Assembly (NCBI GenBank): GCA_035510465.1
Contig: DATKHC010000001.1
Coordinates: 70,799-134,798, forward strand
Source of the DNA: Candidatus Saccharimonadales bacterium
GTDB taxonomy: Bacteria; Patescibacteriota; Saccharimonadia; Saccharimonadales; DATKHC01
DNA length: 64,000 bases
Direction of reading: 5' to 3'
Part shown: piece after piece, positions 44,112 to 64,000 of the stretch
How positions within the stretch are numbered: the first letter of the stretch is position 1
Layout of the letters: each line of letters starts with the position of its first letter
Position numbers and translations under genes: made by a program
The notes under the pieces: generated by a model
What the model was told of the DNA's origin: nothing
The model's database searches: none
What the model saw: the letters and a program-made list of their open reading frames with translations, nothing else

Positions 44112-44391
44112 AGCAGTTTATAACTGTAGATAGGTTGTTGTGCCTAGGTCAAGGATAAAATTTAGGTCACGTGAAATTAACAATATTTACCCACCAATCT
44201 TAGCAACTTTTCCACCTCTGACCAAACCTTTTCCACTATTTTACAGATAGCCGCACAACGTGTGTATAAGTTTCATCTGGGGCAAGTTGCTTTTTTAGTT
44301 TATGGATTGTCGCTTAATTCACTGTGGAAAAGTAACCTTGGACACGTTATAGTTAGTGGATAAAATCTGTGATTGGGGGAGATTAACAAAC
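44112..44391. other. candidate oriC segment (DnaA-box cluster) between rpmH and dnaA
   Basis: Five 9-mers lie within 2 mismatches of TTATCCACA or its complement: 44208-44216 and 44229-44237 (TTTTCCACC/T), 44261-44269 (TGTGTATAA), 44323-44331 (TGTGGAAAA) and 44355-44363 (AGTGGATAA). Confidence 0.55.
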
Positions 44392-45750: not shown

Positions 45751-45839
45751 GTACAAGAATTGGTTTTACTTGTTTATAAGTCTGGTTGCTTGTGGGTACT
45801 TAGCTTACTTATACACGTGTGTTGTTTTTAGTTTTTATA

Positions 45840-45876
45840 GGTTGTTTATACAAAGGTTGTTTATACAAAGGTTGTT
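45840..45876. repeat. 15-bp direct tandem repeat GGTTGTTTATACAAA, 2.5 copies, in the dnaA-dnaN spacer
   Basis: Read directly: ggttgtttatacaaa ggttgtttatacaaa ggttgtt. Each unit contains TTATACAAA (2 mismatches to a DnaA box). AT-rich tracts follow at about 45900-46000. Confidence 0.85.
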
Positions 45877-46021
45877 CTTTATTTTTCCTAAACTTATACC
45901 ACCCCCAAATAATTATAATAACAGTTTAATTAGTGTCTTTGTTCACATTAAACACAGGCCTATTAATAACAACTATGAAGTTTAATAATTTAATTACTTA
46001 TTGGTGGGGTTAGGAAAAAAC

Positions 46022-47116: not shown

Positions 47117-47142
47117 ACAAATATAAGAGGTGGTAAAACTCA

Positions 47143-48201: not shown

Positions 48202-48211
48202 ACCCTGAATC

Positions 48212-48985
48212 CTAACTTCCAACACTAAGTATGCCTGAATCGAAAACTTGACTCCCTGAGGATGTATTGTGCAAGAACAATTCACCTGAATTTAAGCCAC
48301 TATACTGGAAGCTTGCGTTATAAACTGTCTCGTTAATCGAAACGGAAAAGTTTATAACAAAAATACCATCAGGGTTGATTGGGCCAGTAGTAATGCTACT
48401 TTGGTTAATAATAGCGCTACTGAGTTTTATGTTTGTAGTTTGGGCAAAAGCAGTCACCCCCTGTTCATAGTCTTGTACTTGCTGGGTTGATAGACCTTGG
48501 TTGATTAAGCCACTGGTATCACCAAAATCTGGCGGCTGGTCACTGGCAGTGGGTGGCTGCTGAAAAATGGTTTTTTGTTGACTAACAGGCAAGTTAGCAT
48601 ACGGTACGTATTTTGGTGTAAATGTGAAAACGAGGTTTTTTAGTTGTTTCCCAAGATTGTCCGTTACTGAGACAACAGTTAACGTATACCTAGTACTTTG
48701 GTTTAGGGGGTAACTTAAGCTCAAGACCAACGCTTTATAACTGACTTTTGTTGAAGTCACTATCGAAGGATTCGAAACAACAATCAAATTACTACTTGAA
48801 ATTGGTCGATTGAAACTAATCTTTATAGAAGAACTGTCTGTGGCAACATTACTCATGCCCGGATTAGTGCTAACTACATGAAAAGTTGAGGCGTAGTAAA
48901 TTAACCAAATTACCCAGAATACAACAAGTACGGCAGCCAACACGAAGACTATTCTTGTTCTTTTTTGAAATATCGAATGATTCAT
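48212..48985 (-). CDS. membrane-anchored protein with Ig-like (SbsA/Big_5-type) domain; last gene of the T4SS-like operon
   Basis: N-terminal TM (IVFVLAAVLVVFWVIWLIYY). This is followed by VVSTNPGMSNV...IKISFNRPI...YTLTVVSVTDNLGKQL, a typical bacterial Ig-like pattern. Confidence 0.5.
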   Translation of the reverse strand: MNHSIFQKRTRIVFVLAAVLVVFWVIWLIYYASTFHVVSTNPGMSNVATDSSSIKISFNRPISSSNLIVVSNPSIVTSTKVSYKALVLSLSYPLNQSTRYTLTVVSVTDNLGKQLKNLVFTFTPKYVPYANLPVSQQKTIFQQPPTASDQPPDFGDTSGLINQGLSTQQVQDYEQGVTAFAQTTNIKLSSAIINQSSITTGPINPDGIFVINFSVSINETVYNASFQYSGLNSGELFLHNTSSGSQVFDSGILSVGS

Positions 48986-48993
48986 AAGCCTCC

Positions 48994-50352
48994 TTAATCT
49001 GGCGACACATACCCAACAATGTTATCTGAATAATACCCCGAAAAAGTATCTAAAGACACCACAGAACCGCTAGCTGGGTGCTGTGAGCCGTATGCATAAT
49101 CCGGTGTACCATTTCCACCTTGATCACCACCAATATAATTCGATTCACCACCACTTGACGAAACAAAGATATTGATGTGATACCAAGGATTTGCCTGAGA
49201 GGGGTCGTAGTGTAGGGCTAAGTCGCCAGGTTGAGGAGTATAACCACTGCTCTCAGGATGCCAGTGGAAATTTTGATTTTGTTGACCAAGCACTTGAATA
49301 GAAACTACTGATGGTTGTCTCCAACCACCATCTAACCCGCCAGAAAATGGGTAGCCCGCTTGGTTATATATCCAACTCACGAAATCGGCGCACCATTCTT
49401 CATAATTATTATCGGTATATTTCAAAAACCCAGTAGCTGCGTAGATGAAGTCTGGATATGGTGAGTTATAATTAGGCTCGGCTTTCCATGTGGCGAGCTC
49501 TTTCTGGGCGTTGCAGACGATATTTTGGCGAGTTTGGCTTAAATTGGATGACGAAACAGAACTAGTAGTGCTAGTGGCCGTTGAGCTAGAGCAGTTGACA
49601 GTACTGCTGCTGCAATTCGAACTAGAACTAGTGGTTGATCCACTATTTCCCGATGCTCCACCGTATTTCGACAAAACTGACTGAGCATCACCTTCACGGT
49701 TCAGTAAGTATCCATCGTCTTGAGGAGGGTTGGTTACGCCTGAATTGGCAATGCCCCCTTCTTCTAACTCGGCTTCGACAAACTGAGTTGCTTGGTTTAA
49801 GTCGGTCATCCCCTGCAAGGATTTAACCCAGTCTTGTACTCCAGTAAGGCCAGTACCACCCATTTCACCCCAGACCATGGCTAGTTGGGTAGAAAGTTCG
49901 TAAATGGGGGAGGTAATCTTAAGACTTTGAGCAATTTGTATGGCCTTGCCGCCTGGCGTCCATTGGGCAATACCCCAACCTCCGCTACCAGCGTCATTTG
50001 GGTTGTTGCTATCGCCACCTATCTGCATTTCGGTTGGGTCTACGTGGGATTCATCCATAAGGTTGCCAACCACAGCCGACGCTTGAATCGGGCTTAAACC
50101 GTTTTGTATGAAAAAGTTATATGCTTGTTGTTCGTTATCATTGCCGGTTAGCGCTGTAACAGTAGCGCCTCCTGCACAGACAGCAGCAACAGCGGCGTCT
50201 GGGTCATAAAACGGAGTCTTTCCGAGGAATGAATTGTAATCAGTGCCCGTATAAGCAAGGGCTTGGCTAGAGGGTAAAATAATCAAACAAACAGCCACTA
50301 ACAATAGCAACACAGCACGTTGATAACGGTTAATTTGTCGCAGGCGATGCAC
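48994..50352 (-). CDS. secreted bifunctional peptidoglycan hydrolase: lysozyme-like (phage-tail-lysozyme-type) N-domain plus CHAP C-domain (VirB1 functional analogue)
   Basis: Signal peptide ending ALA-YTG. The N-domain has VVGNLMDESHVDP...GWGIAQWT. A Ser/Thr-rich linker follows. The CHAP Cys context is EWCADFVSWIYNQAGYPF, with a later His (GDLALHY). Confidence 0.72.
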   Translation of the reverse strand: MHRLRQINRYQRAVLLLLVAVCLIILPSSQALAYTGTDYNSFLGKTPFYDPDAAVAAVCAGGATVTALTGNDNEQQAYNFFIQNGLSPIQASAVVGNLMDESHVDPTEMQIGGDSNNPNDAGSGGWGIAQWTPGGKAIQIAQSLKITSPIYELSTQLAMVWGEMGGTGLTGVQDWVKSLQGMTDLNQATQFVEAELEEGGIANSGVTNPPQDDGYLLNREGDAQSVLSKYGGASGNSGSTTSSSSNCSSSTVNCSSSTATSTTSSVSSSNLSQTRQNIVCNAQKELATWKAEPNYNSPYPDFIYAATGFLKYTDNNYEEWCADFVSWIYNQAGYPFSGGLDGGWRQPSVVSIQVLGQQNQNFHWHPESSGYTPQPGDLALHYDPSQANPWYHINIFVSSSGGESNYIGGDQGGNGTPDYAYGSQHPASGSVVSLDTFSGYYSDNIVGYVSPD

Positions 50353-53011
50353 CGTTTTGTATGTCCGTTAATTGTTGAATTGTTGTGTCGTAGGCCTGTG
50401 CAACTCTCCACCTAAATACCAAATTACCAGGGTCATTATCGGGTGGACACACCGTGTCTATGGGGTCGTTGGTAGTTAAATTACACGGTGAACAAAGTCC
50501 AGTAGCTGCAGGTATTACATCTCCGTTTGAGTCTCGCTGAATTTGACCACTAGATAATAGGTCTCCCATTGTTTTGTTTATACTGTAACAAGTACTAGCA
50601 TATTTACCTGCTATAGAACTCTCTTGCCCGCTTTTGTCTAGAATCATTTGATTCTCAAGCGGTTGATAGCTTGGGTCAGTCTTTATTAGACTTTCCTCCG
50701 GAGCACTCCACCCCCACTGCACGATCCCATAGTCTTGATTGTCGATATTGGTGGAAGCTACTGCGTTTGCTCGTCCAACAAAAGGTAGTTTTGAAATCCA
50801 ACTCAGTGGCTGTAGGATATCTCCGATTTTTGAAAACATCGAACTAAAAAACGATTTAACGGGGATTGATGCAATGGTTGACACTACATGAGAAGTGAGT
50901 GAACTAGGATTACTTAGCGCAAAATACCTCTGGTAAGCGTTTTTCTTAGAGTTGAGAGAGGCAAGGTATGATGTGTCTTGTGAGCTTGTAGCTGCAACTT
51001 CCGAATTTGTGAGAGGCCTACCATAAAACTGCAATTGCTCTAATTGGTTAGCACTTAAATTATTACCAGCATCAGCATCATCAGCAAACTCAGCATTAGT
51101 AGATAGACCACTGTCTGTGGCACCCATTGATGAAACCACTATAAGCTTTGACAGCAAGGTTGCCCCGGCTATGGTAGCAGCCTTACCCAAAGTTTCCTTA
51201 GAAAAAGTACTGGTGAAGATATCCTTTAGAGCATCTTTATTTATTAATTGTTCGGAGAGCTCTGAGGCTATCTGAGATATTACTTCCTGGACACTTAATT
51301 CTGCGCCTTCTTCAGCAGTAGTTGCTCCACCACCAGTGAAGACGTCGGCTATGGCATTTCCCAGAACATTAACTGTAGCCACGGTTATAACTCCCTCAGG
51401 ACTAGTTATGGCTTGGCAGGACGGTTTTATGGCACTGTTAAATGAGCTGGCGATCCAACCAGGCAAACCAACTGAATTAAGGACTACATTGAATAAGCTA
51501 TATGTACCTGATGCGCCAGTTTGTGGACTTAATACTGAAGTGGTATCGATCGTTTGGCCACTGGCTCTCTCTTCCGGTATTGATTGATCTATATTGCCCA
51601 ATTTCCAATTAAAGGCACCTACAGCCTGAGCATTGGTATCACCAGCTTTTTGCTGATCACCGGCGCTATCCACTAAATAACCGGTTTTTTCCATTTCGGC
51701 ATCTTGAGCATCTATAGTTGAGCCAGAGTTATCGATTGAACCATCGTAAATAATGCATAGTGGCAGTGCGACAGCTTGGGCAGGCGATATTGCTCCGAGA
51801 ATATCATTCCACCAACTACTGGCCGTGTCGTTTGCTAAATCGGTGGCTACAACAGCAGGTTCCTCGCCGTCGTTGCTAACTATCGTTTCCAGACACTGCG
51901 CATTCTCCACGCAATTGGTTTCGTCAGCTGCGGCAGCTTTAGCGTCGCTGTTGTCTTGACTAACAGTTGAGCTACCATCAGCAGCTTGATCATCTATGGC
52001 TTTATAGGCGTCTTGTTCTAATTCCGCCTCAGCTTGGGTAGGAGTGTCTTTTGTGTAATCAGCTAGTTCTTGGGGCGTCCAGGCCTCTAGTTCTATACCT
52101 AGGCTCGGCAAAATCTCATCAACGTTGATCGGCCCTCTTATGACTGTGCTAATCCCATCGGTATTTGTAGATAGATCACTTTCAAAAGCTGACTGAGCTG
52201 AGCTTGGATTGCCTGTAAAATCAGCTGCTCCGTGCTCTTGTTGGGCAAAAGCGGCTGGGGTTTTTGCGGTGTCAGTAATAGCATCAGCCTGTCCATCTTG
52301 GGTAATCCCATTTAATTGGCCAGATGGACTATAGTCCAATTGCAATAAACCTTCATCAGGGTTGCTAACGCTGTCTGTTAGAGCGTTTTCAGTTGTTTGA
52401 GGATTGTAGGTTTCAATTTCTTTAAGTGTAGTGTCGCTTTGAGAATCAATTTCATTTTCAAGAGCAGCTTTTTCTTCAGGGCTGGCAGCTTCTATTGCCA
52501 GCTTCTCTTCAGTTATTTCGGCTGAGTCATCCGCAAAGCTTCTGGCGACTCTAGCGAATTGCCAATCGATGATATTTTGCTCAAACCCTGGTATTAAAAG
52601 TGAAGCCGCAAATATTAGGAGAATTGCAATTACCATAAGACCCCCTCCACCCCCTCCACCTATTAACAACAACTTGGTTTTCTTTGAACCGGTTTTTTTG
52701 ATCTTTGACTTCAACGCATTTTTTGCCTTTGATGAGTTATAAAGACCCCCACTAGTTGATGTACCAGATCCTTCTCCGTCCTCATCCTCAGACGAGGAGG
52801 TAAAAATTGCAGGCTCACCACCACCGGTTGTTGGCTTGTAGAAATTTGGGGAACCTACACCCTCTGTTTGGTTATCACTACCTTCGCCTGTTGCACTTGT
52901 TCTGTTTCCCTGGGGAGCCTCACCAGTTGCACTTGTTCTGTTTCCCGGGGAAGTTTCGTATTGCCTAATTTTATCTAGACCTACAGATTTTTTGTCTTCA
53001 TCATCATCCAT
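50330..53011 (-). CDS. large acidic single-pass membrane protein of unknown family, T4SS-locus associated
   Basis: 893 aa. The acidic low-complexity N-terminus has a 12-aa tandem duplication (GNRTSATGE x2). A Gly7 run and TM (LMVIAILLIFAASLLIPG) follow, then a 750-aa D/E/S/T/A-rich ectodomain. It overlaps the hydrolase gene by 23 nt. Confidence 0.5.
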   Translation of the reverse strand: MDDDEDKKSVGLDKIRQYETSPGNRTSATGEAPQGNRTSATGEGSDNQTEGVGSPNFYKPTTGGGEPAIFTSSSEDEDGEGSGTSTSGGLYNSSKAKNALKSKIKKTGSKKTKLLLIGGGGGGGLMVIAILLIFAASLLIPGFEQNIIDWQFARVARSFADDSAEITEEKLAIEAASPEEKAALENEIDSQSDTTLKEIETYNPQTTENALTDSVSNPDEGLLQLDYSPSGQLNGITQDGQADAITDTAKTPAAFAQQEHGAADFTGNPSSAQSAFESDLSTNTDGISTVIRGPINVDEILPSLGIELEAWTPQELADYTKDTPTQAEAELEQDAYKAIDDQAADGSSTVSQDNSDAKAAAADETNCVENAQCLETIVSNDGEEPAVVATDLANDTASSWWNDILGAISPAQAVALPLCIIYDGSIDNSGSTIDAQDAEMEKTGYLVDSAGDQQKAGDTNAQAVGAFNWKLGNIDQSIPEERASGQTIDTTSVLSPQTGASGTYSLFNVVLNSVGLPGWIASSFNSAIKPSCQAITSPEGVITVATVNVLGNAIADVFTGGGATTAEEGAELSVQEVISQIASELSEQLINKDALKDIFTSTFSKETLGKAATIAGATLLSKLIVVSSMGATDSGLSTNAEFADDADAGNNLSANQLEQLQFYGRPLTNSEVAATSSQDTSYLASLNSKKNAYQRYFALSNPSSLTSHVVSTIASIPVKSFFSSMFSKIGDILQPLSWISKLPFVGRANAVASTNIDNQDYGIVQWGWSAPEESLIKTDPSYQPLENQMILDKSGQESSIAGKYASTCYSINKTMGDLLSSGQIQRDSNGDVIPAATGLCSPCNLTTNDPIDTVCPPDNDPGNLVFRWRVAQAYDTTIQQLTDIQNGASPATN

Positions 53012-53069
53012 AAGTGGCCTTAGTTTTTTTGGCTATCATCGATCATTATTTTACTATAGGCCCCGGTCT

Positions 53070-54974
53070 TCACTGACGAAGCTCAATATCGCCGGATGGT
53101 TGGTTGAGCTCACCTTGTTCTGGAGCAGCTCCCTGGTTGACTGGGCCAGGAGTAGTACTAATTAGACCGGCCTCAGTCTGGCTGGCTACCACTTGGATAT
53201 GAACATGGTTCTGTCCAGCGAAAAACAAACCCTGGCCGATAGGGAACTGACTTAAACGTTTTGTTTCCTCTGAAGTTAGCTTAAAAACATTCGACAATAG
53301 ATCAACGGCTGATGGAGACTGTTTAAGCAACAATTGCATTGAAGCGTTGGCTACAATTGCCCGGCCCATTCTCGAGCCGATAAAATCTTCAACATCCTGG
53401 CTAATAGTGGTAATGCCTAAATTATATTTTCTGGCTCGTTTGGCCAGAGAAAACATAAAGTTAGCTGAATCTTCATATTTCATTAACTGCCAGGCCTCGT
53501 CGATTACTAAAAGTCGTTTTTTCTGATCAGTTTTAGTCTTATTCCAGATATAGTTCAACACTATATACATGGCTACAGGCCGCAGTTCATCCTCAAGGTC
53601 TCTAATATTAAAAACTACCATAGGGTTATTTATGTTGATGTTGCTTTGCTGAGAAAATATACCCGCAAATGTCCCCGAGGTATATTTACGTAACCTTTGG
53701 GCGAGTTGTGGCCCAGTGCCTCCCATGTGCAGTAAAACATCGTACAGGTCAGTAATGGTTGGTGGGGTACCCGTATGGGTGAGCGGATCGTTGCTAATGC
53801 CAGCGTTAGAGTAGGTTTGAATTAGGGCACTATCGAGGTCTGATTCCTCAACTGGGGACAAAGCCGGTACTACCGCACTAGTAGTGTTGCCCAACATCTG
53901 AACTTGAGCGCCTCCCATCATTAGCCTAAGTAGTCCATGAAGAGTAATAAGATTACTCCGCAATGCATTGTCAGCTTCTTCGGTGTCAATTACCTGTGGC
54001 AAATCAAACGGATTAATTCTGACACTGGAATTTAGACTAAGACGTACGTAAGCTCCTCCTACCGCCTCAGACATTCTTTGGTACTCATTTTCTGGGTCGA
54101 TGATAAACACCTCAGTCCCAAACATGATACTTCTAAGAGCTTCCAATTTTACGGCAAATGACTTGCCGGCTCCGGATTTGGCAAATACAACTGAGTTGCT
54201 ATTTTCTAAACTGAATCTATCAAACAAGACCAACCCCGAATTATGCATATTAACGCCGTATAAAATACCCTTGTCGTCGCTTAAATTAGCGCTAGTGAAA
54301 GGGAAACTAGTACTCAGTGCGCCAGTCCCGAAGTTACGCCTGATTTGTAGTTCGTCAGTTGCTTGTGGGATTGTGCTATTTAGGCCTTGTTCTTGTTGAG
54401 CGGAGGCGGGTTTAGAATAGATTAATTGCTGGCCGAGTAGTGTTTCGACCTTATGGCCAACAAATTCGAGCTCATCCAAGCTGCCTCCAAAAATAGTGAA
54501 ATAGAAACCGAGCCTGAAGAAATGTTCTTCGCCAACCTGAAGCTTGTCCCTCATTTCCTCAGCATCAGATATAGCGGCTTGTTTACCCGGATCTCTAACA
54601 CGACCTTTTTCGGCGTCAATTTGTAGCCCAGCTTCTAGCTGGCCAACCTTTTTTCTCAAGTTCTCTAAAACGACCTGAGCGTTGACGGGGTATATGAAGT
54701 GGGATATATCTATAACCTCATCTATGTTAATAAGTGGGCTTAACCAGCCAGTAGAAACTTGTCTTGGATACCCATAAACGTAGTAGCTACGGGCATATCG
54801 GGTGCCAATTTGGAAATAGTTGCTTTGAAAGTCTATAAAACTTGGAGCTATGAAATCACGAAGAGCAGTTATGCCTTTTTCAAATGCCTCATTTACCTCT
54901 TGCTGCTCTCTGAGGCGTTGTTCCTGAACAACGGTTACTGGGTCAATTCGCCTTTTTCTCCACCCTAAAGCCAT
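53070..54974 (-). CDS. virB4: type IV secretion VirB4/TrsE/PrgJ-family ATPase
   Basis: Walker A FAKSGAGKSF, IIDPENEY and Walker B RLLVIDEAWQLM. The N-domain pattern YYVYGYPRQVSTGWLSPL...DISHFIYP is typical of Gram-positive-type VirB4. Confidence 0.9.
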   Translation of the reverse strand: MALGWRKRRIDPVTVVQEQRLREQQEVNEAFEKGITALRDFIAPSFIDFQSNYFQIGTRYARSYYVYGYPRQVSTGWLSPLINIDEVIDISHFIYPVNAQVVLENLRKKVGQLEAGLQIDAEKGRVRDPGKQAAISDAEEMRDKLQVGEEHFFRLGFYFTIFGGSLDELEFVGHKVETLLGQQLIYSKPASAQQEQGLNSTIPQATDELQIRRNFGTGALSTSFPFTSANLSDDKGILYGVNMHNSGLVLFDRFSLENSNSVVFAKSGAGKSFAVKLEALRSIMFGTEVFIIDPENEYQRMSEAVGGAYVRLSLNSSVRINPFDLPQVIDTEEADNALRSNLITLHGLLRLMMGGAQVQMLGNTTSAVVPALSPVEESDLDSALIQTYSNAGISNDPLTHTGTPPTITDLYDVLLHMGGTGPQLAQRLRKYTSGTFAGIFSQQSNININNPMVVFNIRDLEDELRPVAMYIVLNYIWNKTKTDQKKRLLVIDEAWQLMKYEDSANFMFSLAKRARKYNLGITTISQDVEDFIGSRMGRAIVANASMQLLLKQSPSAVDLLSNVFKLTSEETKRLSQFPIGQGLFFAGQNHVHIQVVASQTEAGLISTTPGPVNQGAAPEQGELNQPSGDIELRQ

Positions 54975-54977
54975 ATG

Positions 54978-56003
54978 TTATAACCCCTCTACGTCTAAAT
55001 TAGGTTGAGGAGCCAAACCAGGGCCTTTAGTAACTACAGGGGGGTTTAAATCGTTAAAGTTCTTGAGTTGCTGTCTGACAGCTGTATCAGGGTTGTAGGT
55101 GTCATAGTAAAGTTCAATGAGCTCCTGTGTATCCAGAGGCAAGCCTTTGATATTACATTGAGCCAGCCCTCCTAAAATAGCCTCAACACGAGTTCTAAGC
55201 TCGTCCTTAGCCTTGGCTAAATCGGCCTCATTAATGACTACCGTTTTCTCTTTTTTCGAAAACAGAGCTCCAAGTCCTGTAAAAAAGTTCTTACTTTGAG
55301 CAATAGCTTGTTGAATGTTCTCAACAGGTGAGTAAGGAACGATTATATAAAAACCCTTGTCCATTATGTTGGTATGTTGAGACAAATCGACCATAAAATT
55401 AAGATAATCTTCCATTAAAACCGCCAGCAACATGTTGTCTTGTTCTAGTCGCATTTTGTCCAGTTTGTTTATGTACGGAGAAATATCCACACGCTCGGAG
55501 TGAATGAAAATCTGGATAGGGAAATACATTGCGTTCAAAAAACCCTGGTAGGCAAACTCAACAGCCTCTTTTTCGTCCGGGCTCATAAGGTCGAAATTAA
55601 TCGGTTTTACCATGATGACTGATCTATACGTGCCATCGTTTAAAATCACAATCCCATCTCTAATCTCGGCTATTTGTAGAGCATTTTGAGAACTGTTAGG
55701 GTTAACTTTTTTGGGTATTGGGGCAACTCCTTGCTGGGCTGGTGTGGGTGCGGGTGGCAATTGATTAGCAGAGGGTATAAAAGGTGGCTGCCCAGATACA
55801 GGGGGATTAAAGCTAGCACTGCTACCATTGCTAGGCTGATTAAGAATCTGGTTGGCCTGAGCTTGAAAATCAAAAGTTGGAGCTGCTGGTTCGGTTGGGT
55901 TGTTTGTAAAATCCTGCGCAGAATAAGTCCCATCGGCGTTTAGCACCGTTGGGTCTTGACCAGTTGTGTTACTGTTTGGATTTGTTTTAGGCTCAGGATT
56001 CAT
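54978..56003 (-). CDS. hypothetical T4SS-associated protein: Pro/Gln-rich N-terminus plus domain resembling a VirB4 N-terminal (non-ATPase) domain
   Basis: 341 aa. DGIVILNDGTYRSVIMVKPINFDLMSPDEKEAVEFAYQGFLNAMYFPIQIFIHSERVD resembles the N-terminus of Tn916-class VirB4 proteins, from memory. No Walker motifs. It ends 3 nt before virB4. Confidence 0.45.
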   Translation of the reverse strand: MNPEPKTNPNSNTTGQDPTVLNADGTYSAQDFTNNPTEPAAPTFDFQAQANQILNQPSNGSSASFNPPVSGQPPFIPSANQLPPAPTPAQQGVAPIPKKVNPNSSQNALQIAEIRDGIVILNDGTYRSVIMVKPINFDLMSPDEKEAVEFAYQGFLNAMYFPIQIFIHSERVDISPYINKLDKMRLEQDNMLLAVLMEDYLNFMVDLSQHTNIMDKGFYIIVPYSPVENIQQAIAQSKNFFTGLGALFSKKEKTVVINEADLAKAKDELRTRVEAILGGLAQCNIKGLPLDTQELIELYYDTYNPDTAVRQQLKNFNDLNPPVVTKGPGLAPQPNLDVEGL

Positions 56004-56050
56004 TGAGCTTACTATTGCCCCCTAAATGATCAATAACAATTGTAGCCAAA

Positions 56051-57115
56051 TTAGTGCAATGATACTACTACTTCTTCAGGGAGATCATCTTTAGGAGGAC
56101 GTTTCTTCGCTTCGCTTGCTATAGTTGCGACACTTTTATTATTATCAGCAGCTAAAGATGACACTTTTTTACTTTGGGCATCGCTTTGTTTAACCCCACT
56201 TTTTTTCAAGCCCGTATCAGTTTTTGATAGCGGCTCCAAAACATGAGTGTGACCGTAAGCTGGGTTAGGCCCTTGGTGTGCTTTCTTGATTTTTTCTGCT
56301 AACTGAGGAGTTATAGATGCGTTTTGAGTACTTTCGTCATCGTCATCACCCGGACGGTAAACAGTTAAGTCAGAAAAAGTTTGATGTCTAGGGTCAGATG
56401 CCTGTAGGGTAGTCGGTTGATTCATGAACCAATAGTCTTGTTTCGTTTGTTTGTTGTCTTTGGACTCGGGGTGGTCAACCAAAGTTTCATGATATTGCCG
56501 TTGTTCGTGTTCGTTTTGCTCAATAGCTTGAGCTAAATGCTGAGATGTCGGATTGGCGTTATCCAAAATATCGTCTTCTAAAGTCACATCATAGCTAGGG
56601 ACGTCCTGCGGTAGAGTACTTACATTTATTAAACGGTCAGAATCCTCCTCGGTAGACATATAGTCTGGTTGGTTATACATATTGACCCCAACGTTTTTTA
56701 CAGCCCAGCCTCTCGTATCAATTGTGTTTGCAAGCGCCTTTAAGCGGCTTTTCGCCTCTGTTTCCGAAAAGTTTTTAGTCATCTGCCGAGCAACAACAGC
56801 AGGAGCAGTAATCTTGACTAACTCTTGATAACCTCCTTGTTTCCAAATCCGTCTTCTGGGTTTCAGAAAAAACCGTACGCGGGCTAGAAGCCATATTTCG
56901 TTTGGTTGATCCCTGCCAAAGGGAATTGCTAGTGCCCCGAATAGGATAATGGGCAAAAACAGTGGAATGATGGCTACTATGCTGATTGAAGCAAGCTTGT
57001 AGTCTATGAACATCAAAACTACAGTTATGCCTGCGTAAATGAACTGACGCAGGGTCAGGGGCCCGAGTAGCTTATCCTCCGCTTCTATGTCTTGTATTAC
57101 TTTATAAGTTGCCAT
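56051..57115 (-). CDS. PrgI-family (VirB3-like) membrane protein with long C-terminal extension
   Basis: The N-terminal MATYKVIQDIEAEDKLLGPLTLRQFIYAG followed by two TM helices matches the PrgI pattern. The remaining 250 aa or so are polar and charged. Confidence 0.6.
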   Translation of the reverse strand: MATYKVIQDIEAEDKLLGPLTLRQFIYAGITVVLMFIDYKLASISIVAIIPLFLPIILFGALAIPFGRDQPNEIWLLARVRFFLKPRRRIWKQGGYQELVKITAPAVVARQMTKNFSETEAKSRLKALANTIDTRGWAVKNVGVNMYNQPDYMSTEEDSDRLINVSTLPQDVPSYDVTLEDDILDNANPTSQHLAQAIEQNEHEQRQYHETLVDHPESKDNKQTKQDYWFMNQPTTLQASDPRHQTFSDLTVYRPGDDDDESTQNASITPQLAEKIKKAHQGPNPAYGHTHVLEPLSKTDTGLKKSGVKQSDAQSKKVSSLAADNNKSVATIASEAKKRPPKDDLPEEVVVSLH

Positions 57116-57154
57116 TTTTTTAAACTTCTAATTCACGCTTAATTATATATAACC

Positions 57155-60127
57155 CTACGCCGGTGGTTCGGTAGGTGGTCCTTGTGGTTGTCCTGTGCCA
57201 CTGGCTATGTTCTGATCTGTAAACTGACCACCTCTACCTCTTAAGTTCTCTTTCTGATAATCCTCTATTTCCTTGGCCAAACCCATTATCCTATTGACAG
57301 CCTCTTCAGCAAATTGTTTAGTCTTAGGATCAGTATAAGCCCCAGGTGCGTAGGTCATAGCCAATTGTTCCAAAGAAGCTCGTCTTTCTCTGTCGGCTCT
57401 CTGGTTGATAATAACGACTTGATCTTGTGCTTCTTGCTGGGCCTGCGCCTGAACCGCGGGAGGCTGATTTGCAGCAGCAGCAACTATTTGTTGAGCTACT
57501 CGTTGACCCTCAGCAGTAGCATTTGCCTTTACGTTGCCAACGCGTTCGGCAATACCTTCCATGGATTCTGCAACGGCGTCAAATGAAGTACCATCCTTAC
57601 GATATTCAGTGTACGGCTTAAGACTGTTTGTCACGCTTGGGCCTCCTCTAGCCAAATTGGCACCAAGTCTTTGGCGTGCGTCGGTTGGTTTTTTATCATA
57701 TAAGGTTTGGTAACTACTGACGACATTGTTTTTCAGTTCCGAAGTGTAAGTTATGTAGTTTCCAGCGTTCTTTGAGGTGAAGATTAGATCTCCCCAAGCC
57801 GCGGCCTTGGCTGATCTATCTTGCTGCGAGGTTCCGTACATATCATTTAGTTTTTCGAGGGAAGCACCAGATAGTTTACCAAAACTCGCATTTACCTTCA
57901 TGGCACCTAGGATCATATCTTTTCGGCCAGCATATTTAGCATACATGGCTAAACCATCGGCCTTGTCAGTTTCGCCTGCATCTCTCAGCTCTTTAACACG
58001 ATTTTGTAGTGATCCTAGAGTACCGCCGTGATTTATGAACTCATTTCCTGACCCATCGTCTAACAATCCCTCTTGTTGGAGAGTCTTCGCGGCTTCGTTG
58101 ATACTCCCTGCCATACCGGTAGATAAGGCGGACCGACCTTTCAGGGCGTGCTTTCCTGGGAGTAGTGCTGAAGGCTGAGTAACATATGCGAGCCCAGCGT
58201 TTAAACCCCTGTTGTATCTCTCGTTAAATCTCTGACCCCTCTTAAACTTATTAATACCTGGGATCTTGGCTCCAGGGTACCTGTTTTCTCTCTTCATCTT
58301 ACCCCAGTTTTCGGCCAATTTCCTCTTTCTAAAGTTATTAAGTGGCTTATTGGCGGCTCGCTGCAAATGTGTAGCCAGACTACCAGTTGCGGACAATAAA
58401 CCCCCAGCCCACTTAAACGTAAACGGAATCATAAAGTATGGTCCGAAATAGGCGATGATGGCAACCATCTCTTGAACTAGGCCAGTATTACCCCCCGAGG
58501 TAGTTACAGCCGCAAACACTCGACCAATCGCGATTATACCGGAGATGATTGGGAACATTAGAAGGGCTTTGCTTAGATTTTCCCACCACAATTTCCATAC
58601 TCTCTGGGTGCCGGGAAGGATATACATGGCAATAGCAATGGGTGCAAAAATTGCTAGGAATACTACAAGAATCTCTCGAAAGGTTAACAGAACAAAGGCC
58701 AAAATTACCGCTATAGCAGCAGTCAAAACAATGCTCAAGATACCAATAAGACTCAAACCTACCAAACTGGCTGCGCTCAGCAGAACCAGTGCTGTCGAGC
58801 CAGTTTGACCGATTTGTATCGTACCAATGGACGTAAACGGTGTATAAATAAGTGCTCTAATACCTTGCCCCAGTCCATCAGAAACCTGAATCAATACCTG
58901 TATTATTTGCCAGGACAGGGAAATGCCAATAACAGCAATTAACATACGAGGCAGCACTTTTTTAATGGTGTAGGCATCAAAAGCTTCGTAACCCAAAGCC
59001 TGTGATATAACCATTACTAAAGCCGCTATAACGACTATGGCAATTGCGAGAGTTCGTAGACTTTCCCAAGCTTTATAGAAACCGTTACTCCCGGCTTGCT
59101 GGGCAGGTGTGTTTGATTGCCCGGCACAATTTGGGTTCTGTGACCCAGCTATCGTGCCGTTAAAGTACTGACAGCCATTTATATCTAACATACCAACTAT
59201 TGCGCTGTCCAAAGTGCCGATTAACTTAGATGCAGTATCGACGATCGGACAAAACAACCAAGTCAGAGGATTAAAATCAACGACACAATTCAATGCAGGT
59301 CCGGATTCGGCTTGCGCACTGCTTGGAGTACCAGAAGGAGGGCCAGGTGCGGTTAAGGAAGCAAGGGTATAGGCGCCATTTTGAACTGAGCCACCATTTG
59401 GGCAGTTATAGTTGTATTCTGCCGCTACAGTAGCCGTTAGACCACTCGGTAGAGTTCCATATCCATGACCACAATTTTGATAAACCGAGATGCTTGGCGG
59501 AGTATAGTTCTCGTCGGCATTAGAGTTGCTGAAAGTTGGGCTACCCCATTCTTGGGAATCTGAAGGTTCACCCGGATAGCATGGTACGTAGTATGGTCCA
59601 ACTTGACCAATGGTAAAACCACTAGAATCTACAACTGAAAATGTCCAATCGTTTTGGGGTGTGTCTGTACATGCAGCCAGAGATCCAGCCGCAGTGCCAC
59701 TGCCACTGGTGGCTTCATAAAAGGTTCTATCATCCCCCGTAACAATAATCTCGTAGGTATTTGTTAGCGGTTCAGTAACTGGTGTTTCATTACAATGTCC
59801 TTCTTGTTTAGGTGGGCAGGTAGGCGTTACTTGCTGGGTTGTTACTTGGTTGCCGCTTACTGACAGAGTCCCAGTTGAATTACCGCCATCGGGACCAGGG
59901 GAAGGAGCAGCCTGCCGAGTTGCGATTACAGTGACCCCAGAACCGCTGACAGTCGAGGGATTAAGATGAATGAAAAACTCCTCATAGTTAGAAGGAACAC
60001 CTACAGGAGTCTGAACAGGAGTATCACCCAAAACTTTATGATTGCCCAGGAACAAGAAGAACCCCATGGCAACTAATCCAGTCAAGAAGACAATATTTAA
60101 ACTGATTTTCAATTTGTGTTTTAACAT
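57155..60127 (-). CDS. giant polytopic VirB6/TrbL-like channel protein (PrgH/TcpH/ConG analogue) with Cys-containing ectodomain and large C-terminal cytoplasmic domain
   Basis: 990 aa. The signal/anchor is followed by a roughly 320-aa Cys-, Gly-, Pro- and Thr-rich N-domain. A block of 6-7 TM helices (aa 355-590) is Gly/Ala/Ile-rich like TrbL/VirB6. A 400-aa hydrophilic tail ends the protein. It is the first gene of the operon. Confidence 0.55.
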   Translation of the reverse strand: MLKHKLKISLNIVFLTGLVAMGFFLFLGNHKVLGDTPVQTPVGVPSNYEEFFIHLNPSTVSGSGVTVIATRQAAPSPGPDGGNSTGTLSVSGNQVTTQQVTPTCPPKQEGHCNETPVTEPLTNTYEIIVTGDDRTFYEATSGSGTAAGSLAACTDTPQNDWTFSVVDSSGFTIGQVGPYYVPCYPGEPSDSQEWGSPTFSNSNADENYTPPSISVYQNCGHGYGTLPSGLTATVAAEYNYNCPNGGSVQNGAYTLASLTAPGPPSGTPSSAQAESGPALNCVVDFNPLTWLFCPIVDTASKLIGTLDSAIVGMLDINGCQYFNGTIAGSQNPNCAGQSNTPAQQAGSNGFYKAWESLRTLAIAIVVIAALVMVISQALGYEAFDAYTIKKVLPRMLIAVIGISLSWQIIQVLIQVSDGLGQGIRALIYTPFTSIGTIQIGQTGSTALVLLSAASLVGLSLIGILSIVLTAAIAVILAFVLLTFREILVVFLAIFAPIAIAMYILPGTQRVWKLWWENLSKALLMFPIISGIIAIGRVFAAVTTSGGNTGLVQEMVAIIAYFGPYFMIPFTFKWAGGLLSATGSLATHLQRAANKPLNNFRKRKLAENWGKMKRENRYPGAKIPGINKFKRGQRFNERYNRGLNAGLAYVTQPSALLPGKHALKGRSALSTGMAGSINEAAKTLQQEGLLDDGSGNEFINHGGTLGSLQNRVKELRDAGETDKADGLAMYAKYAGRKDMILGAMKVNASFGKLSGASLEKLNDMYGTSQQDRSAKAAAWGDLIFTSKNAGNYITYTSELKNNVVSSYQTLYDKKPTDARQRLGANLARGGPSVTNSLKPYTEYRKDGTSFDAVAESMEGIAERVGNVKANATAEGQRVAQQIVAAAANQPPAVQAQAQQEAQDQVVIINQRADRERRASLEQLAMTYAPGAYTDPKTKQFAEEAVNRIMGLAKEIEDYQKENLRGRGGQFTDQNIASGTGQPQGPPTEPPA

Positions 60128-60413: not shown

Positions 60414-61112
60414 ATGAAAGTTATCAGAAGCACACTAAACTTATTTGCAAAAACCTCTTTTTTGAATTCAATTTCGTTAATCCTGGCCCTAGTTTTTGGG
60501 ATATCGATATTTCAAGGGCATACTTTTGCCGCATCTGGAGGAGTGTGCCATGACAGTTTTTCGAACATTTCCTACAAGTGTGGCACAGCGGGCATTAACC
60601 CCTGTAGTTTTATTCCGATACAGGGGCAAAGTCCAAGCGGTCAGGGTAATTGTGACCCTTCGGCGTGTGCAAGCCAATCATGTCCTTCAGCCTCAATTTG
60701 GACATTTGACCCAACTCAGTGTTATCTTCTGTCCACTGTGCCCAACAGTTCTGCTGAGCAGTGGGTAGGTGGTCAAAATTGCTCAGGCGCAGACTACACA
60801 ACTAATGTTCAATCTACCACCATACCATCCAACGTAACTCCACCGGATGCAGCAGCTAACTGTAGTACTAATTGTAACTTGATAACTGAATACTTAAATC
60901 CAATAATCAATTTCTTGTCTGCGGCAGTTGGCATAGTGGTCGTTATGATGATCGTTGTTGGCGGTATTCAATATTCGTCATCCGGCGGTAACCCGCAATC
61001 CGCAGCAGCCGCTAAGAAAAGAATAGCCAATGCTATTTTAGCCGCTTTTGCCTTTTTGTTTTTGTATGGCTTTCTACAGTTTATAGTTCCCGGGGGACTT
61101 TTTAATGGCTAG
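60414..61112 (+). CDS. VirB2/TrbC-like T4SS pilin paralogue 1, with extended 10-Cys ectodomain
   Basis: Signal peptide ending TFA-AS. A 130-aa head with 10 Cys is followed by a C-terminal TM-loop-TM hairpin (IVVVMMIVVGGIQYSSSGGNPQS...AILAAFAFLFLYGF). Confidence 0.65.
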   Translation: MKVIRSTLNLFAKTSFLNSISLILALVFGISIFQGHTFAASGGVCHDSFSNISYKCGTAGINPCSFIPIQGQSPSGQGNCDPSACASQSCPSASIWTFDPTQCYLLSTVPNSSAEQWVGGQNCSGADYTTNVQSTTIPSNVTPPDAAANCSTNCNLITEYLNPIINFLSAAVGIVVVMMIVVGGIQYSSSGGNPQSAAAAKKRIANAILAAFAFLFLYGFLQFIVPGGLFNG

Positions 61113-61134
61113 GCCAAAGGACTAAGATATAGAC

Positions 61135-61551
61135 GTGGATATTTTTTCTTCAATCGCACCAGCAATTAAACTGTTTGCTGACAGTTGCGGAGGTAGTAGT
61201 ACTACCTTCTTTGGTTTACCAGTTTGGTATAAATACCTAGCGATTAAAGCGAGTTCGACCAGCGCTTGTAACTTCAACGGCTTTAGTTTGTTCAACGGAA
61301 GTAATTTTGCCCCAGATAATATACTGCTAATTCTCTTAGCCGTACTTGACGACCTATTAATTATTGCTGGCATTGTTGCGGTAGTCTTTGTTATATATGG
61401 TGGCGTTCGCTATATCCTAAGTAGCGGAGAGCCAGAGAACGTAAAAGCAGCTCAATCAACTATCCTCAATGCGTTAATAGGGCTAGTAATTAGCGCAGTA
61501 GCTGCTACTCTTGTGAATTACATTGGTTTTGCCTTTGGTGGCGGAAAATAA
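61135..61551 (+). CDS. VirB2/TrbC-like T4SS pilin paralogue 2 (no obvious cleavable signal peptide)
   Basis: GTG start. 2 Cys in the N-terminal part. The motif FFGLPVWYKYL is present. Hairpin IVAVVFVIYGGVRYILSSGEPENVKAAQSTILNALIGLVISAV. Confidence 0.6.
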   Translation: MDIFSSIAPAIKLFADSCGGSSTTFFGLPVWYKYLAIKASSTSACNFNGFSLFNGSNFAPDNILLILLAVLDDLLIIAGIVAVVFVIYGGVRYILSSGEPENVKAAQSTILNALIGLVISAVAATLVNYIGFAFGGGK

Positions 61552-61561
61552 AGGTTGTAAA

Positions 61562-62029
61562 GTGGCTAAATTCAAGACCCAATCACCGAAAAGACGACAC
61601 AAACTACCCGTACTGGTACTGTTATTTATTTTTGGGCTAACGCTGATGTTTGGCCGGGCTGCCTCAACCTCCGCGCAATCACTGTCTCTAGGAGATAAGT
61701 TGCTAAATGTAGCACAAACGAGTCCTCCTTGTTCCTGCTCTTCAAGTTCTACAAGCGTAAACCTCTGCTCATTACCTGGAAGTTGCACGGACCTAAGTAA
61801 CCCATCAAACTCAGCAGCTGCTATAAAAACTGCTCTAAACATACTGTTCTCGATACTTGGAGCCATAGCACTACTTATAGTAACCATAGCTGGTTTCAGG
61901 TATGTAATTTCTAGAGGTGAGCCCCAAGAAGTTTCCAAGGCTAAAGACACCATCCTCTACGCCTTAATTGGGCTGGTGGTCTGCATGGCCGCTCTAGCAA
62001 TAGTTAACTTTGTAGCGGGTAACGTATGA
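61562..62029 (+). CDS. VirB2/TrbC-like T4SS pilin paralogue 3
   Basis: The frame is open from 61523, but the GTG at 61562 gives a proper signal peptide (KRRHKLPVLVLLFIFGLTLMFGRAASTSA-QS). 4-Cys head. Hairpin LLIVTIAGFRYVISRGEPQEVSKAKDTILYALIGLVV. Confidence 0.65.
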   Translation: MAKFKTQSPKRRHKLPVLVLLFIFGLTLMFGRAASTSAQSLSLGDKLLNVAQTSPPCSCSSSSTSVNLCSLPGSCTDLSNPSNSAAAIKTALNILFSILGAIALLIVTIAGFRYVISRGEPQEVSKAKDTILYALIGLVVCMAALAIVNFVAGNV

Positions 62030-62439
62030 AGCGTAGACTAAACAAGTTTTTATCTGCAATAACACTAAGCCTATTTCTTGCGGCTCCCCTTATAGCATTG
62101 CCAGCAAAAATGGCTTTGGCGGACCCAAACGCTCAATTTAATCAAATCTGCTCTGACCCCAACGCCGCTAGTTCACCTATCTGTAAAGATGCACCCAGCA
62201 CTGATCCTCTGACAAACGGGGGCAGTGGCATCCTAGATGACGTTACTAACGTAATCGCCTTAGTTGCAGGTGTAGCAGCCGTTATTATGATCATCGTGGG
62301 CGGGCTAATGTATGTATTGTCTGGCGGTGAGTCCCAAAGGGTAAATTCGGCTAAAAACACTATACTTTTTGCTATCATTGGAATTGTCGTTATAGTTTTA
62401 GCAAGAGCACTAATTGTCTATGTAGTAACACAGGTATAA
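62026..62439 (+). CDS. VirB2/TrbC-like T4SS pilin paralogue 4
   Basis: Signal peptide ending MALA-DP. 2-Cys loop ICSDPNAASSPIC. Hairpin VIMIIVGGLMYVLSGGESQRVNSAKNTILFAIIGIVV. ATGA overlap with paralogue 3. Confidence 0.7.
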   Translation: MKRRLNKFLSAITLSLFLAAPLIALPAKMALADPNAQFNQICSDPNAASSPICKDAPSTDPLTNGGSGILDDVTNVIALVAGVAAVIMIIVGGLMYVLSGGESQRVNSAKNTILFAIIGIVVIVLARALIVYVVTQV

Positions 62440-62441
62440 AA

Positions 62442-62846
62442 ATGAAATTTAAATTAAAAATTTTCCTAGTGGCAGCAGCAGTGAGCGTACTTAGTTTTAT
62501 TGGCTTAAGCCCGTCAGTTGCACATGCAAGTACTTTCACAAGCTCATCAGGTCAGACAATTTGTCAAGGAGTTGGGGAGATTGATAGCTCAGGTAATTGT
62601 GATGCTGCGGGTGGTACATCCGACCTGAGTAAAATTATAGGTACAGTCCTAAATATATTGAGCCTAGTCGTAGGTATAGCAGCGGTTGTGATGATAATTG
62701 TGGCGGGTTTACGATATATATTATCGGGAGGTGAATCACAAAACGTTAACAATGCCAAAAACACTTTAATTTACGCTGTAGTTGGGCTGGTAGTTGTAGC
62801 CCTAGCTCAAATAATCGTTCATTTTGTAATTAATAGCGTGAGTTAA
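62442..62846 (+). CDS. VirB2/TrbC-like T4SS pilin paralogue 5
   Basis: Signal peptide ending VAHA-ST. 2-Cys loop ICQGVGEIDSSGNC. Hairpin VVMIIVAGLRYILSGGESQNVNNAKNTLIYAVVGLVVVALAQIIVHFV. Confidence 0.7.
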   Translation: MKFKLKIFLVAAAVSVLSFIGLSPSVAHASTFTSSSGQTICQGVGEIDSSGNCDAAGGTSDLSKIIGTVLNILSLVVGIAAVVMIIVAGLRYILSGGESQNVNNAKNTLIYAVVGLVVVALAQIIVHFVINSVS

Positions 62847-62958
62847 AGCCACATGATTTTTAATAAACCTACACCTGAGCTTAAGCTTTTTTAACTTGAG
62901 CTTGGCAAGTAGCTATGATATAAGTAATTACGATATCTCAAGAAAGGCTAGCTTAAAA

Positions 62959-63390
62959 ATGATTAAACGAATAAAAGTTTTGTTAACTACAGTAGGTATG
63001 ATAAGTCTGATGCTATCACCTATGGCTATACCAGTTGCTGTACACGCCGATACCATAACACCAGGAAATATAGCTTGTGGCGCTGACGGTAATTTCACCC
63101 CAGGGGCTGATTGTAGTAACGGTAATACCGCAACTAGCTCAATCGACGGAATAATTCAATTTACTCTAAACATCTTTTCGTTAATTGTTGGTATCGTCGC
63201 TGTCATTATGATTATAGTTGGTGGTCTTAAGTACATTCTCTCTGGCGGTGAGTCTTCCAAAACGGCTGGCGCTAAAGATACCATACTATTCGCTATCATC
63301 GGGTTAGTAGTTGTGGCTCTAGCTCAAATAATTGTTCACTTTGTGCTCTCAAATGTGGCTAACGGTACTAATGGCACTGGCGGAAGCTAA
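62959..63390 (+). CDS. VirB2/TrbC-like T4SS pilin paralogue 6
   Basis: The ATG at 62959 (AGAAAGG upstream) gives a signal peptide ending AVHA-DT. 2-Cys loop ACGADGNFTPGADC. Hairpin VIMIIVGGLKYILSGGESSKTAGAKDTILFAIIGLVVVALAQIIVHFV. Confidence 0.7.
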   Translation: MIKRIKVLLTTVGMISLMLSPMAIPVAVHADTITPGNIACGADGNFTPGADCSNGNTATSSIDGIIQFTLNIFSLIVGIVAVIMIIVGGLKYILSGGESSKTAGAKDTILFAIIGLVVVALAQIIVHFVLSNVANGTNGTGGS

Positions 63391-63422
63391 ACAAAATCTT
63401 TTAGAACGAAGGCTAATTTAAT

Positions 63423-63456
63423 AAGCCCCTTGGAAATCAAGGGGCTTAATTTATTT
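63423..63456. terminator. bidirectional rho-independent terminator between the pilin array and hsp20
   Basis: Perfect 9-bp stem AAGCCCCTT (63423-63431) / AAGGGGCTT (63439-63447) with a 7-nt loop, followed by the T-rich AATTTATTTGTCTTTT. It lies between convergent genes. Confidence 0.8.
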
Positions 63457-63468
63457 GTCTTTTAGTGT

Positions 63469-63945
63469 TTATAGAACCTGGATCTTCTTAACAGTTTCTT
63501 GCTTAACTTTAGTAAAGCTGATGGTGAGAACGCCGTCTTTTAGAACTGCTTCAACCTCATCTTCTTTAACTGGGACTGGTAGGGCAATGCTACGAGAGAA
63601 TTCACCCCAGTAACATTCCTGGACAAAATAGTTCTCTACGTCTTCCTCGTTTCCAGCCGAAAGCGTACCTCTGATACTTAGAGTGTTATCTGCAATCGAA
63701 ATATCCAAATCACTCTTGTTAACCCCAGCAGTTCTGGCTTTAACAACTAGCTTTTCTCTAGTCTCGTAAACGTCTACCGCTAACTGACCAGGCACAGTAT
63801 CGTCCTCTTCCCACTCTTCAGCAGCTACAGCAGTAGTTTCTTCTTCACTACCCTCTGGAGCTAAATCCTCATCTCCCAGGAAAGCAGCCGTTAATTCGTC
63901 TTCTTCCATTAGTAGGTCATCATCGTCACGGCTCTTGCGTGCCAT
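63469..63945 (-). CDS. hsp20: small heat-shock protein (Hsp20/alpha-crystallin family) with acidic N-terminal extension
   Basis: Alpha-crystallin domain (LAVDVYETREKLVVKARTAGV...LSIRG...FSRSIALPVPV...AVLKDGVLTISFTK). The ATG at 63945 is preceded by GGAGGG. Confidence 0.88.
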   Translation of the reverse strand: MARKSRDDDDLLMEEDELTAAFLGDEDLAPEGSEEETTAVAAEEWEEDDTVPGQLAVDVYETREKLVVKARTAGVNKSDLDISIADNTLSIRGTLSAGNEEDVENYFVQECYWGEFSRSIALPVPVKEDEVEAVLKDGVLTISFTKVKQETVKKIQVL

Positions 63946-64000
63946 AAGTGCTACCCTCCGCAAATATCAAATAAATTTTAGAATTTGCAATTTTTGTTAC

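Follow-up and report, generated by a model that had tools for sequence, protein, structure and literature searches.

Ancient paralogues with class-specific heads and similar hairpins in a T4SS pilin array of Candidatus Saccharimonadales

Tandem pilin arrays in Patescibacteria and in the window

Tandem pilin genes associated with type IV secretion systems (T4SS) have recently been described in Patescibacteria. The passages of Wang et al. (2023; PMC10633639) devoted to this locus report a series of predicted pilins in the essential T4SS cluster of Southlakia epibionticum ML1 (SEML1_0006-0019), and a 2025 review (PMC12857230), in its account of the pilins, describes six VirB2-like proteins with conserved structure and divergent sequence. 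On a broader scale, the sections of Quiñonero-Coronel et al. (2025; PMC12102498) on VirB2 arrays report 441 arrays with 2-11 pilin genes each (PF18895/PF04956), which are numerous in Saccharimonadia and located near dnaA; the members of an array are on average 25% and at most 54% identical, and an antigenic-variation-like versatility was proposed for them. Here, a further array is described in a stretch of 64,000 nucleotides (nt), hereafter the window, from a metagenome-assembled genome of Candidatus Saccharimonadales (TM7). Attention is focused on the last two of its six tandem pilin genes, P5 and P6, which occupy positions 62442-63390 of the + strand in this order. Based on the available evidence, it is estimated with a probability of about 0.75 that P5 and P6 are an ancient pair with heads kept as separate classes and with membrane hairpins that remain alike through purifying selection and concerted evolution, the latter including gene conversion of short tracts. 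Throughout, P1-P6 denote the genes of the window and p1-p6 the positional classes that they form with their counterparts in related genomes.

The array (60414-63390) encodes six VirB2-like pilins of a chromosomal, origin-proximal T4SS. When whole-protein scores were compared with the Pfam gathering thresholds (26.6 bits for PF18895, T4SS_pilin; 27.9 bits for PF04956, TrbC/VirB2), all six genes were above that of PF18895 (P1-P4, 38.3-54.1 bits; P5, 56.7 bits; P6, 47.0 bits), and P5 barely exceeded that of PF04956 (28.0 bits), with P6 (17.6 bits) and P4 (19.3 bits) below it. The array adjoins a VirB4-containing T4SS cluster near the replication origin. The same holds for S. epibionticum ML1, a member of the same phylum in which, according to the description of its locus, tandem pilins lie in a monoderm-type T4SS cluster (VirB4, VirB6-like, VirB3/PrgI-like and a cell-wall hydrolase) that adjoins dnaA/dnaN and has no recognisable relaxase nearby; the likeness considered here is one of gene layout, and the essentiality data are those of Southlakia. 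The identity between members of the window's array (21-46%) falls within the range given in the array sections of the survey (PMC12102498). Thus, the system itself is already known, and this array is one more instance of it with a mildly interesting evolutionary pattern. The proteins also resemble the VirB2/TrbC/TraA pilins of diderm bacteria (PF04956) in their small size, a leader predicted to be removed, a pair of hydrophobic helices with a short polar loop between them and the location of their genes beside VirB4/VirB6; in contrast, they belong to a monoderm host and carry an additional Cys-loop head N-terminal to the hairpin.

P5 (62442-62846, 134 residues) and P6 (62959-63390, 143 residues) share one architecture, in which a Sec-type signal peptide would be followed by a short head, exposed and containing a C-x11-C loop of the disulphide type, and by a two-helix hydrophobic hairpin (the scaffold) with the short connecting loop YILSGGES. 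In P5 these parts correspond to positions 62442-62528 (signal peptide), 62529-62627 (head), 62628-62717 (transmembrane helix 1, TM1), 62718-62765 (loop) and 62766-62843 (TM2), and in P6 to positions 62959-63048, 63049-63144, 63145-63234, 63235-63282 and 63283-63360, respectively, followed by a Gly/Asn/Thr tail (63361-63387, + strand). The mature heads comprise 33 residues in P5 and 32 in P6, and both scaffolds start at residue 63. The start of P6 is most likely the ATG at 62959; a TTG located upstream at 62896, which was included in the range given by an earlier, first-pass annotation of this DNA, would produce a protein of 164 residues. The ATG is favoured because the public gene call uses the same codon and because the resulting N-terminus, MIKRIK, fits the MI[KQ]K[IL]K conserved in the p6 class.

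Both sequences display a basic N-terminus, a hydrophobic core and AHA/VHA motifs. The two long hydrophobic helices and short polar loop that characterise VirB2-like pilins were found in the sequence and in the AlphaFold2 (AF2) model of P5, which contains a leader helix (residues 2-20) and helices at residues 60-94 and 99-133 (predicted local distance difference test, pLDDT, 78-88); the confidence of this model is moderate overall (pLDDT 72.8) and below 55 in the head. Based on the homology to VirB2/TrbC pilins (PF18895, and marginally PF04956 for P5) and on the AF2 model, it can be proposed that export of each protein is probably followed by cleavage after AHA/VHA, and that the protein then sits as, or polymerises from, a helical hairpin with the Cys-loop head directed outward. 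The head would thus be surface-exposed and would carry a disulphide bond, and the pilins would assemble into a pilus, a step which the 2025 review, where it deals with polymerisation, considers still unproven even in cultured Saccharibacteria (PMC12857230).

Age of the P5/P6 pair and conservation of the heads

Relatives were collected by scanning one genome per species with the VirB4-like protein, which yielded 80 Saccharibacteria loci (VirB4 77-82% identical). A hidden Markov model of the hairpin detected pilin arrays in most of them and exactly six pilins on one strand in 35, which together with the window make up the 36 genomes compared below. The best full-length match of each gene in other genomes was the gene at the same position in all 36 cases for p1, p2 and p6, in 34/36 for p3 and p4 and in 27/36 for p5. 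When the head was used alone, the best match of p5 was another genome's p5 in 31 of the 36 genomes and never its own p6. The heads of the window gave the same result with leave-one-out profiles, that of P5 scoring 37.6 bits on the p5 class vs 26.4 bits on the p6 class, and that of P6 scoring 47.6 bits on the p6 class vs 10.5 bits on the p5 class. The P5 Cys loop, CQGVGEIDSSGNC (62562-62600, + strand), is by eye like those of the p5 heads ACQGLSQIDSSTDC (L013) and ACQGLTQIDSNQDC (L033), and the P6 Cys loop, CGADGNFTPGADC (63076-63114, + strand), is like those of the p6 heads TCGANLSVSSISSGDTC (L007) and NCGAELNVQQTGQNC (L059). The first-pass annotation held that the two Cys loops differ in sequence and in length; the sequences do differ, but the length is the same, since both are C-x11-C. 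The heads of P5 and P6 differ because they belong to two old classes and not because of recent divergence.

At the protein level P5 and P6 are the most similar pair of the array, with an overall identity of 46% (66% over the scaffold) compared to 44% for P4/P5. The synonymous sites of the pair are saturated outside TM2: the Nei-Gojobori proportion of synonymous differences (pS) in the codon alignment of TM1 and the loop is 0.9-1.0, though the protein is 78% identical there, and the same codon is used at 16 of the 45 scaffold positions with the same residue, vs 14.6 expected from random draws based on the codon usage of the genome. In addition, the nucleotide informative sites of P4, P5 and P6 describe a star, in which the three possible pairings are backed by 33, 30 and 30 sites. 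Although P5 and P6 are the youngest two members of the array, they are still ancient, and the duplication that produced them is older than the common ancestor of at least 36 species-level genomes. An exact-sequence look-up of P5, which bears on the population-level variants that the first-pass annotation proposed to compare, returned three contigs, all 100% identical to the window; the best non-self homologue of P5 among 5.8 billion proteins is 59% identical.

Since the duplication, purifying selection has kept the heads as distinct classes. The ratio of nonsynonymous to synonymous divergence (dN/dS) of the head in the closest genome pair (L028/L030) is ~0.09 for p5, and the p6 head shows 0 nonsynonymous vs 16 synonymous differences; these values are rough, as this pair already reaches a dS of ~1.1-1.5, near saturation, and other pairs are saturated. 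The heads outpace the hairpins several-fold in dN (0.25 vs 0.03, pooled), yet they are under purifying selection. The diversifying selection on the heads suggested by the first-pass annotation is therefore not borne out, the heads being class-specific, conserved between orthologues and low in dN/dS (~0.09 in p5 and 0 in p6). The low dN/dS of the heads, although obtained at a dS near saturation, their conservation within classes and the location of the exchange tracts in the hairpin likewise argue against antigenic or diversifying pilin variation. In the hairpin, p6 is the most conserved class, with a between-genome identity of 0.66 vs 0.40-0.50 for the others.

Similarity of the hairpins

The shared sequence described in the first-pass annotation was found at the protein level: a TM2 core of 15 residues, GLVVVALAQIIVHFV, is identical in P5 (62784-62828) and P6 (63301-63345), and both proteins contain the near-identical TM1/loop segment MIIV[A/G]GL[R/K]YILSGGES. 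The two 36-mers quoted in support of visible nucleotide similarity were located at 62790-62825 and 63307-63342 and match at 32 of 36 bases. This similarity is limited to ~45 nt of TM2 (38/45 identical), and TM1 and the loop are only ~60% identical in DNA. Divergence along the aligned pair is heterogeneous, and the uniform divergence that the first-pass annotation had set against its own proposal did not occur. This heterogeneity is a general pattern of the family, the Pfam domain of which spans the hairpin only, and is not a signature of recency.

Under simple divergence, the p5 of a genome is expected to be equally distant from its own p6 and from the p6 of other genomes. The observed scaffold identity between p5 and p6 was 0.64 within genomes vs 0.54 between genomes, and the within-genome value was higher in 35 of the 36 genomes. 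The excess was smaller for p4/p5 (+0.05) and p4/p6 (+0.02), and 12 of the 14 other paralogue pairs showed none, which rules out an artefact of composition or codon usage as the origin of the within-genome similarity. When only the scaffold was compared, the nearest sequence of p5 was the p6 of its own genome in 13/35 cases, and that of p6 was the p6 of another genome in 32/34.

Exact runs of at least 17 nt shared by p5 and p6 were present in 10 of the 36 within-genome pairs (17-55 nt, with maxima of 41-55 nt), the 99th percentile of between-genome pairs being 18 nt. Other paralogue pairs have almost no long exact runs, with the exception of p4/p5, for which a run of up to 61 nt was observed in one genome. 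As the positions of the conversion tracts differ between genomes, they correspond to independent events; an assembly artefact was considered and is unlikely, as the tracts do not exceed 55 nt, which is below typical assembly k-mers, and vary in position by genome. Two loci, L004 and L058, contain masked N runs and are to be discounted in this respect. In L051, p5 and p6 have sixteen consecutive TM2 codons (48 nt) in common. The p6 of its sister genome, L056, has the same residues as in L051 with many different codons, and the residues of p5 are different there, a pattern which evidences conversion from p6 to p5 after the two genomes split. The loop shows a related pattern, as the motif LSGGES occurs in P4, P5 and P6 of the window alone among the 108 p4-p6 proteins and the private motif IGGNDP is common to p4, p5 and p6 of L036; a further private motif, GNDQAV, is common to p5 and p6 of L039. 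Together with the exact runs of p4/p5, the private loop motifs indicate that concerted evolution reaches p4.

In the window itself there is no long exact tract between P5 and P6, the longest run being 14 nt, and P5 is a mosaic. Its TM2 core shares 9 of 15 codons with P6, vs 5.1 expected from codon usage (P = 0.03; ~0.04 after correction for the scan), and the rest of the hairpin shares 7/30 vs 9.5 expected. A MaxChi-type scan of P4, P5 and P6 placed a breakpoint exactly at the first codon of TM2 (permutation P = 0.001, all sites). On its left side P5 matches only P4 at 30 sites and only P6 at 13, and on its right side these numbers are 3 and 17; over TM1 and the loop the DNA of P4 is closer to P5. 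The change of partner was also observed when only synonymous sites were counted, i.e. in codons where the residues of P4, P5 and P6 agree (left of the breakpoint 6 vs 1, right of it 1 vs 5; Fisher P = 0.03). It seems that an old, short conversion from P6 to P5 covered TM2 and has since been eroded by 7 synonymous changes in 45 nt, and the data point to an older concerted change in the loop. The P5 copy of the core would be the converted tract and the P6 copy (+ strand, like the former) the probable donor, with the direction taken from L051/L056 and from the best matches of the scaffolds. Consequently, the gene conversion confined to the scaffold that the first-pass annotation offered as an alternative holds in modified form for the family, where short tracts are evident, but in the window it is reduced to one old, eroded TM2 tract and does not cover the whole scaffold.

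Altogether, it is likely that the hairpins stay alike for two reasons. Strong purifying selection acts on the hairpin, and lineage-specific concerted evolution operates between neighbouring paralogues, at least partly by occasional gene conversion over short tracts (~20-55 nt), mostly from p6 to p5. As an alternative, the first-pass annotation regarded P5 and P6 as a recent tandem duplication in which positive diversifying selection has since rewritten the heads only. Though P5/P6 is the most similar pair of the array and its TM2 has the same protein sequence in both genes, with a DNA identity of 84%, this origin is very improbable and was rejected on the basis of the synonymous saturation outside TM2 and the positional orthology, p5 and p6 being separate positional classes in 36 genomes; the star-like nucleotide sites of P4, P5 and P6, an overall identity hardly above that of P4/P5, the purifying selection on the heads of the closest orthologue pair and the identical C-x11-C spacing of both heads also speak against it. 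The possibility that purifying selection acted alone, with no conversion in the window's genome and a TM2 match produced by a constrained helix, codon bias and chance, deserves more weight and is still unlikely. It would accord with a TM2 that is near the consensus (p6 orthologues are 78% identical in TM2), with the random level of overall codon identity (16 vs 14.6) and with a longest exact run, 14 nt, that lies at the 95th percentile of between-genome pairs; it does not account for the codon excess in TM2 (P = 0.03-0.04), for a breakpoint exactly at the start of TM2 that includes synonymous sites, for LSGGES being restricted to P4, P5 and P6 of the window's genome, nor for a family-wide within-genome excess limited to neighbouring paralogues.

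A third explanation is co-adaptation without exchange of DNA, in which P4, P5 and P6 would be assembled together, or would have a common assembly partner or lipid environment, and changes in one hairpin would select for matching ones in the others. The within-genome excess that persists in 25 of 26 genomes with baseline synonymous sites is what this explanation predicts, and the shared loop motifs LSGGES (window) and IGGNDP (L036) also agree with it, the codons of P5 in the window being different from those of P4 and P6. Protein-level selection, however, cannot produce exact tracts of 41-55 nt that include synonymous positions, in several genomes and at varied places of the scaffold, nor does it predict that the synonymous-only informative sites of the window change partner at the TM2 boundary; moreover, the same protein-only pattern would be expected if the conversion were old and its synonymous sites had since decayed. 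Co-adaptation as the sole explanation is thus regarded as improbable, to a similar degree as purifying selection alone.

Several observations weigh against purifying selection combined with concerted evolution as the explanation of the window and the family. The 26 genomes without long exact tracts keep the within-genome excess (0.61 vs 0.53) with a codon identity at baseline (0.338 vs 0.351 in controls). This protein-only excess fits old conversion or co-adaptation alike, and protein-level co-adaptation could account for part of the family-wide signal. In the window, the synonymous evidence is weak (P 0.03-0.04, with 15 codons and 13 informative synonymous sites), and MaxChi-type tests can be misled by paralogue-specific constraint, the TM2 of P4 differing in amino acids. 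The TM2 of P5 and the p6 TM2 of other genomes have an average identity of 80%, which makes the 15/15 match less striking, and, as the TM2 core of P5 lies near the p5/p6 consensus, purifying selection alone would explain most of this identity and constitutes a serious partial explanation. Regarding the comparative data, the first Met was taken as a crude gene start in the relatives, and P values based on genome counts are inflated because the 36 genomes are related. Concerning the assignment as pilins, Foldseek searches of the PDB gave no significant structural match to solved VirB2/TraA pilins (none with E < 1); an archaeal conjugation pilin ranked 31st (E = 10), the bare hairpin carrying little signal, and a profile search of PDB sequences returned nothing relevant.

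Organisation of the array and meaning for the family

The four genes upstream of P5 lie on the same strand and belong to PF18895. P1 (60414-61112) has a far larger head of ~130 residues with 10 cysteines; among p1 orthologues the head contains between 2 and 10 cysteines. In P2 (61135-61551), as in p2 of L005-L081, the head carries the conserved motif FFG[LF]P.WY.YL followed by Cys, and the class has no obvious Sec-type leader in many genomes, that of the window included; p2 is probably a functionally different subunit. P3 (PF18895, E = 1.7e-14) ends at 62029, and from its listed TTG start (61523) it would overlap P2; the likely start is the GTG at 61562, which is in frame, has AAAGG before it and would give a basic N-terminus and a hydrophobic leader with no overlap. 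The head of P3 is long, with 4 Cys and a leader, compared to the short, Cys-free head without an obvious leader of most p3 orthologues. The public (Logan) annotation of identical contigs treats an open reading frame antisense to this region (61483-61953, - strand, 156 residues, no Pfam match) as a gene and leaves the overlapping + strand P3 uncalled; this call is probably a mis-annotation. P4 (62026-62439) carries the loop motif LSGGES in common with P5 and P6.

The genes p1-p5 abut or overlap, and p6 is set apart by a gap with a median of 74 nt, which measures at least 40 nt in 34 of the 36 genomes. In the window this spacer (62847-62958, 112 nt, + strand) contains a promoter-like site, TTAACT-17-TATGAT (62891-62919), which is a lead only, since the number of such sites in a promoter scan did not exceed that of shuffled sequences; a palindromic AGCTTAAGCT followed by a T-run was also observed there. 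The spacer may represent a separate promoter or RNA element for p6. Because p6 is the most conserved class and has its own conserved spacer, it can be regarded as the likely main subunit, and it is reasonable to propose that it is both the principal subunit and the donor in conversion. A strong terminator-like hairpin with a 12-bp stem and a T-rich tail (63422-63448, + strand) closes the array after P6, and a gene of the Hsp20/alpha-crystallin family (63469-63963, - strand), with an unusually acidic, Asp/Glu-rich N-terminal extension, converges on its end.

Upstream of the pilins, the divergent T4SS genes (48994-60127, - strand) encode a TrbL_3/VirB6-like protein (57155-60127), a PrgI/VirB3-like protein (56051-57115), a TraC-like protein (54978-56003), a VirB4-like ATPase (P-loop_TraG/AAA_10; 53070-54974), a protein of 893 residues (50330-53011) and a lysozyme/CHAP hydrolase (48994-50352). 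Among the ten neighbouring proteins scanned, no match to a relaxase or coupling protein was found. The cluster lies within ~3 kb of dnaA-dnaN-recF-like genes (dnaA at 44356, dnaN at 46001), and an origin-proximal placement such as that at 44356-60127 has been reported for T4SSs of Patescibacteria.

Several tandem pilin paralogues are also present in Anaplasma and Bartonella (VirB2), and gene conversion among pilin copies is known from Neisseria (pilE/pilS). In those systems conversion or variation diversifies the exposed part of the pilin, whereas the p5/p6 conversion proposed here would homogenise the membrane hairpin only and leave the heads intact. A difference also exists with respect to the versatility proposed in the array sections of the Patescibacteria survey (PMC12102498): in the family studied here each head belongs to a conserved positional class and is under purifying selection, and a set of six fixed, specialised subunits is therefore favoured over a variable repertoire. 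The positional orthology of the six classes, the purifying selection on the heads and the homogenisation of neighbouring hairpins do not appear in the passages of the literature that deal with these arrays and are modest refinements of what is described there. As the pair also illustrates, a recent duplication can hardly be recognised from local protein identity in transmembrane helices.

As a tentative extension, more doubtful than likely, the six pilins could be fixed, non-redundant subunits of one heteromeric T4SS filament of a monoderm epibiont, with distinct heads for contacts with the host and with the hairpins of p4-p6 kept compatible by directional micro-conversion from p6. If this were true, a "master copy" mechanism would homogenise the assembly interface and spare the recognition surface, the opposite of classical antigenic variation. 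Few features specific to Patescibacteria have been shown to be essential for epibiotic growth, and the T4SS pilin array is one of them. The conserved positional classes, with heads under purifying selection, and a homogenisation restricted to the hairpin favour a fixed multi-subunit structure, in which p6 is likely the main subunit, over a variable antigenic repertoire.

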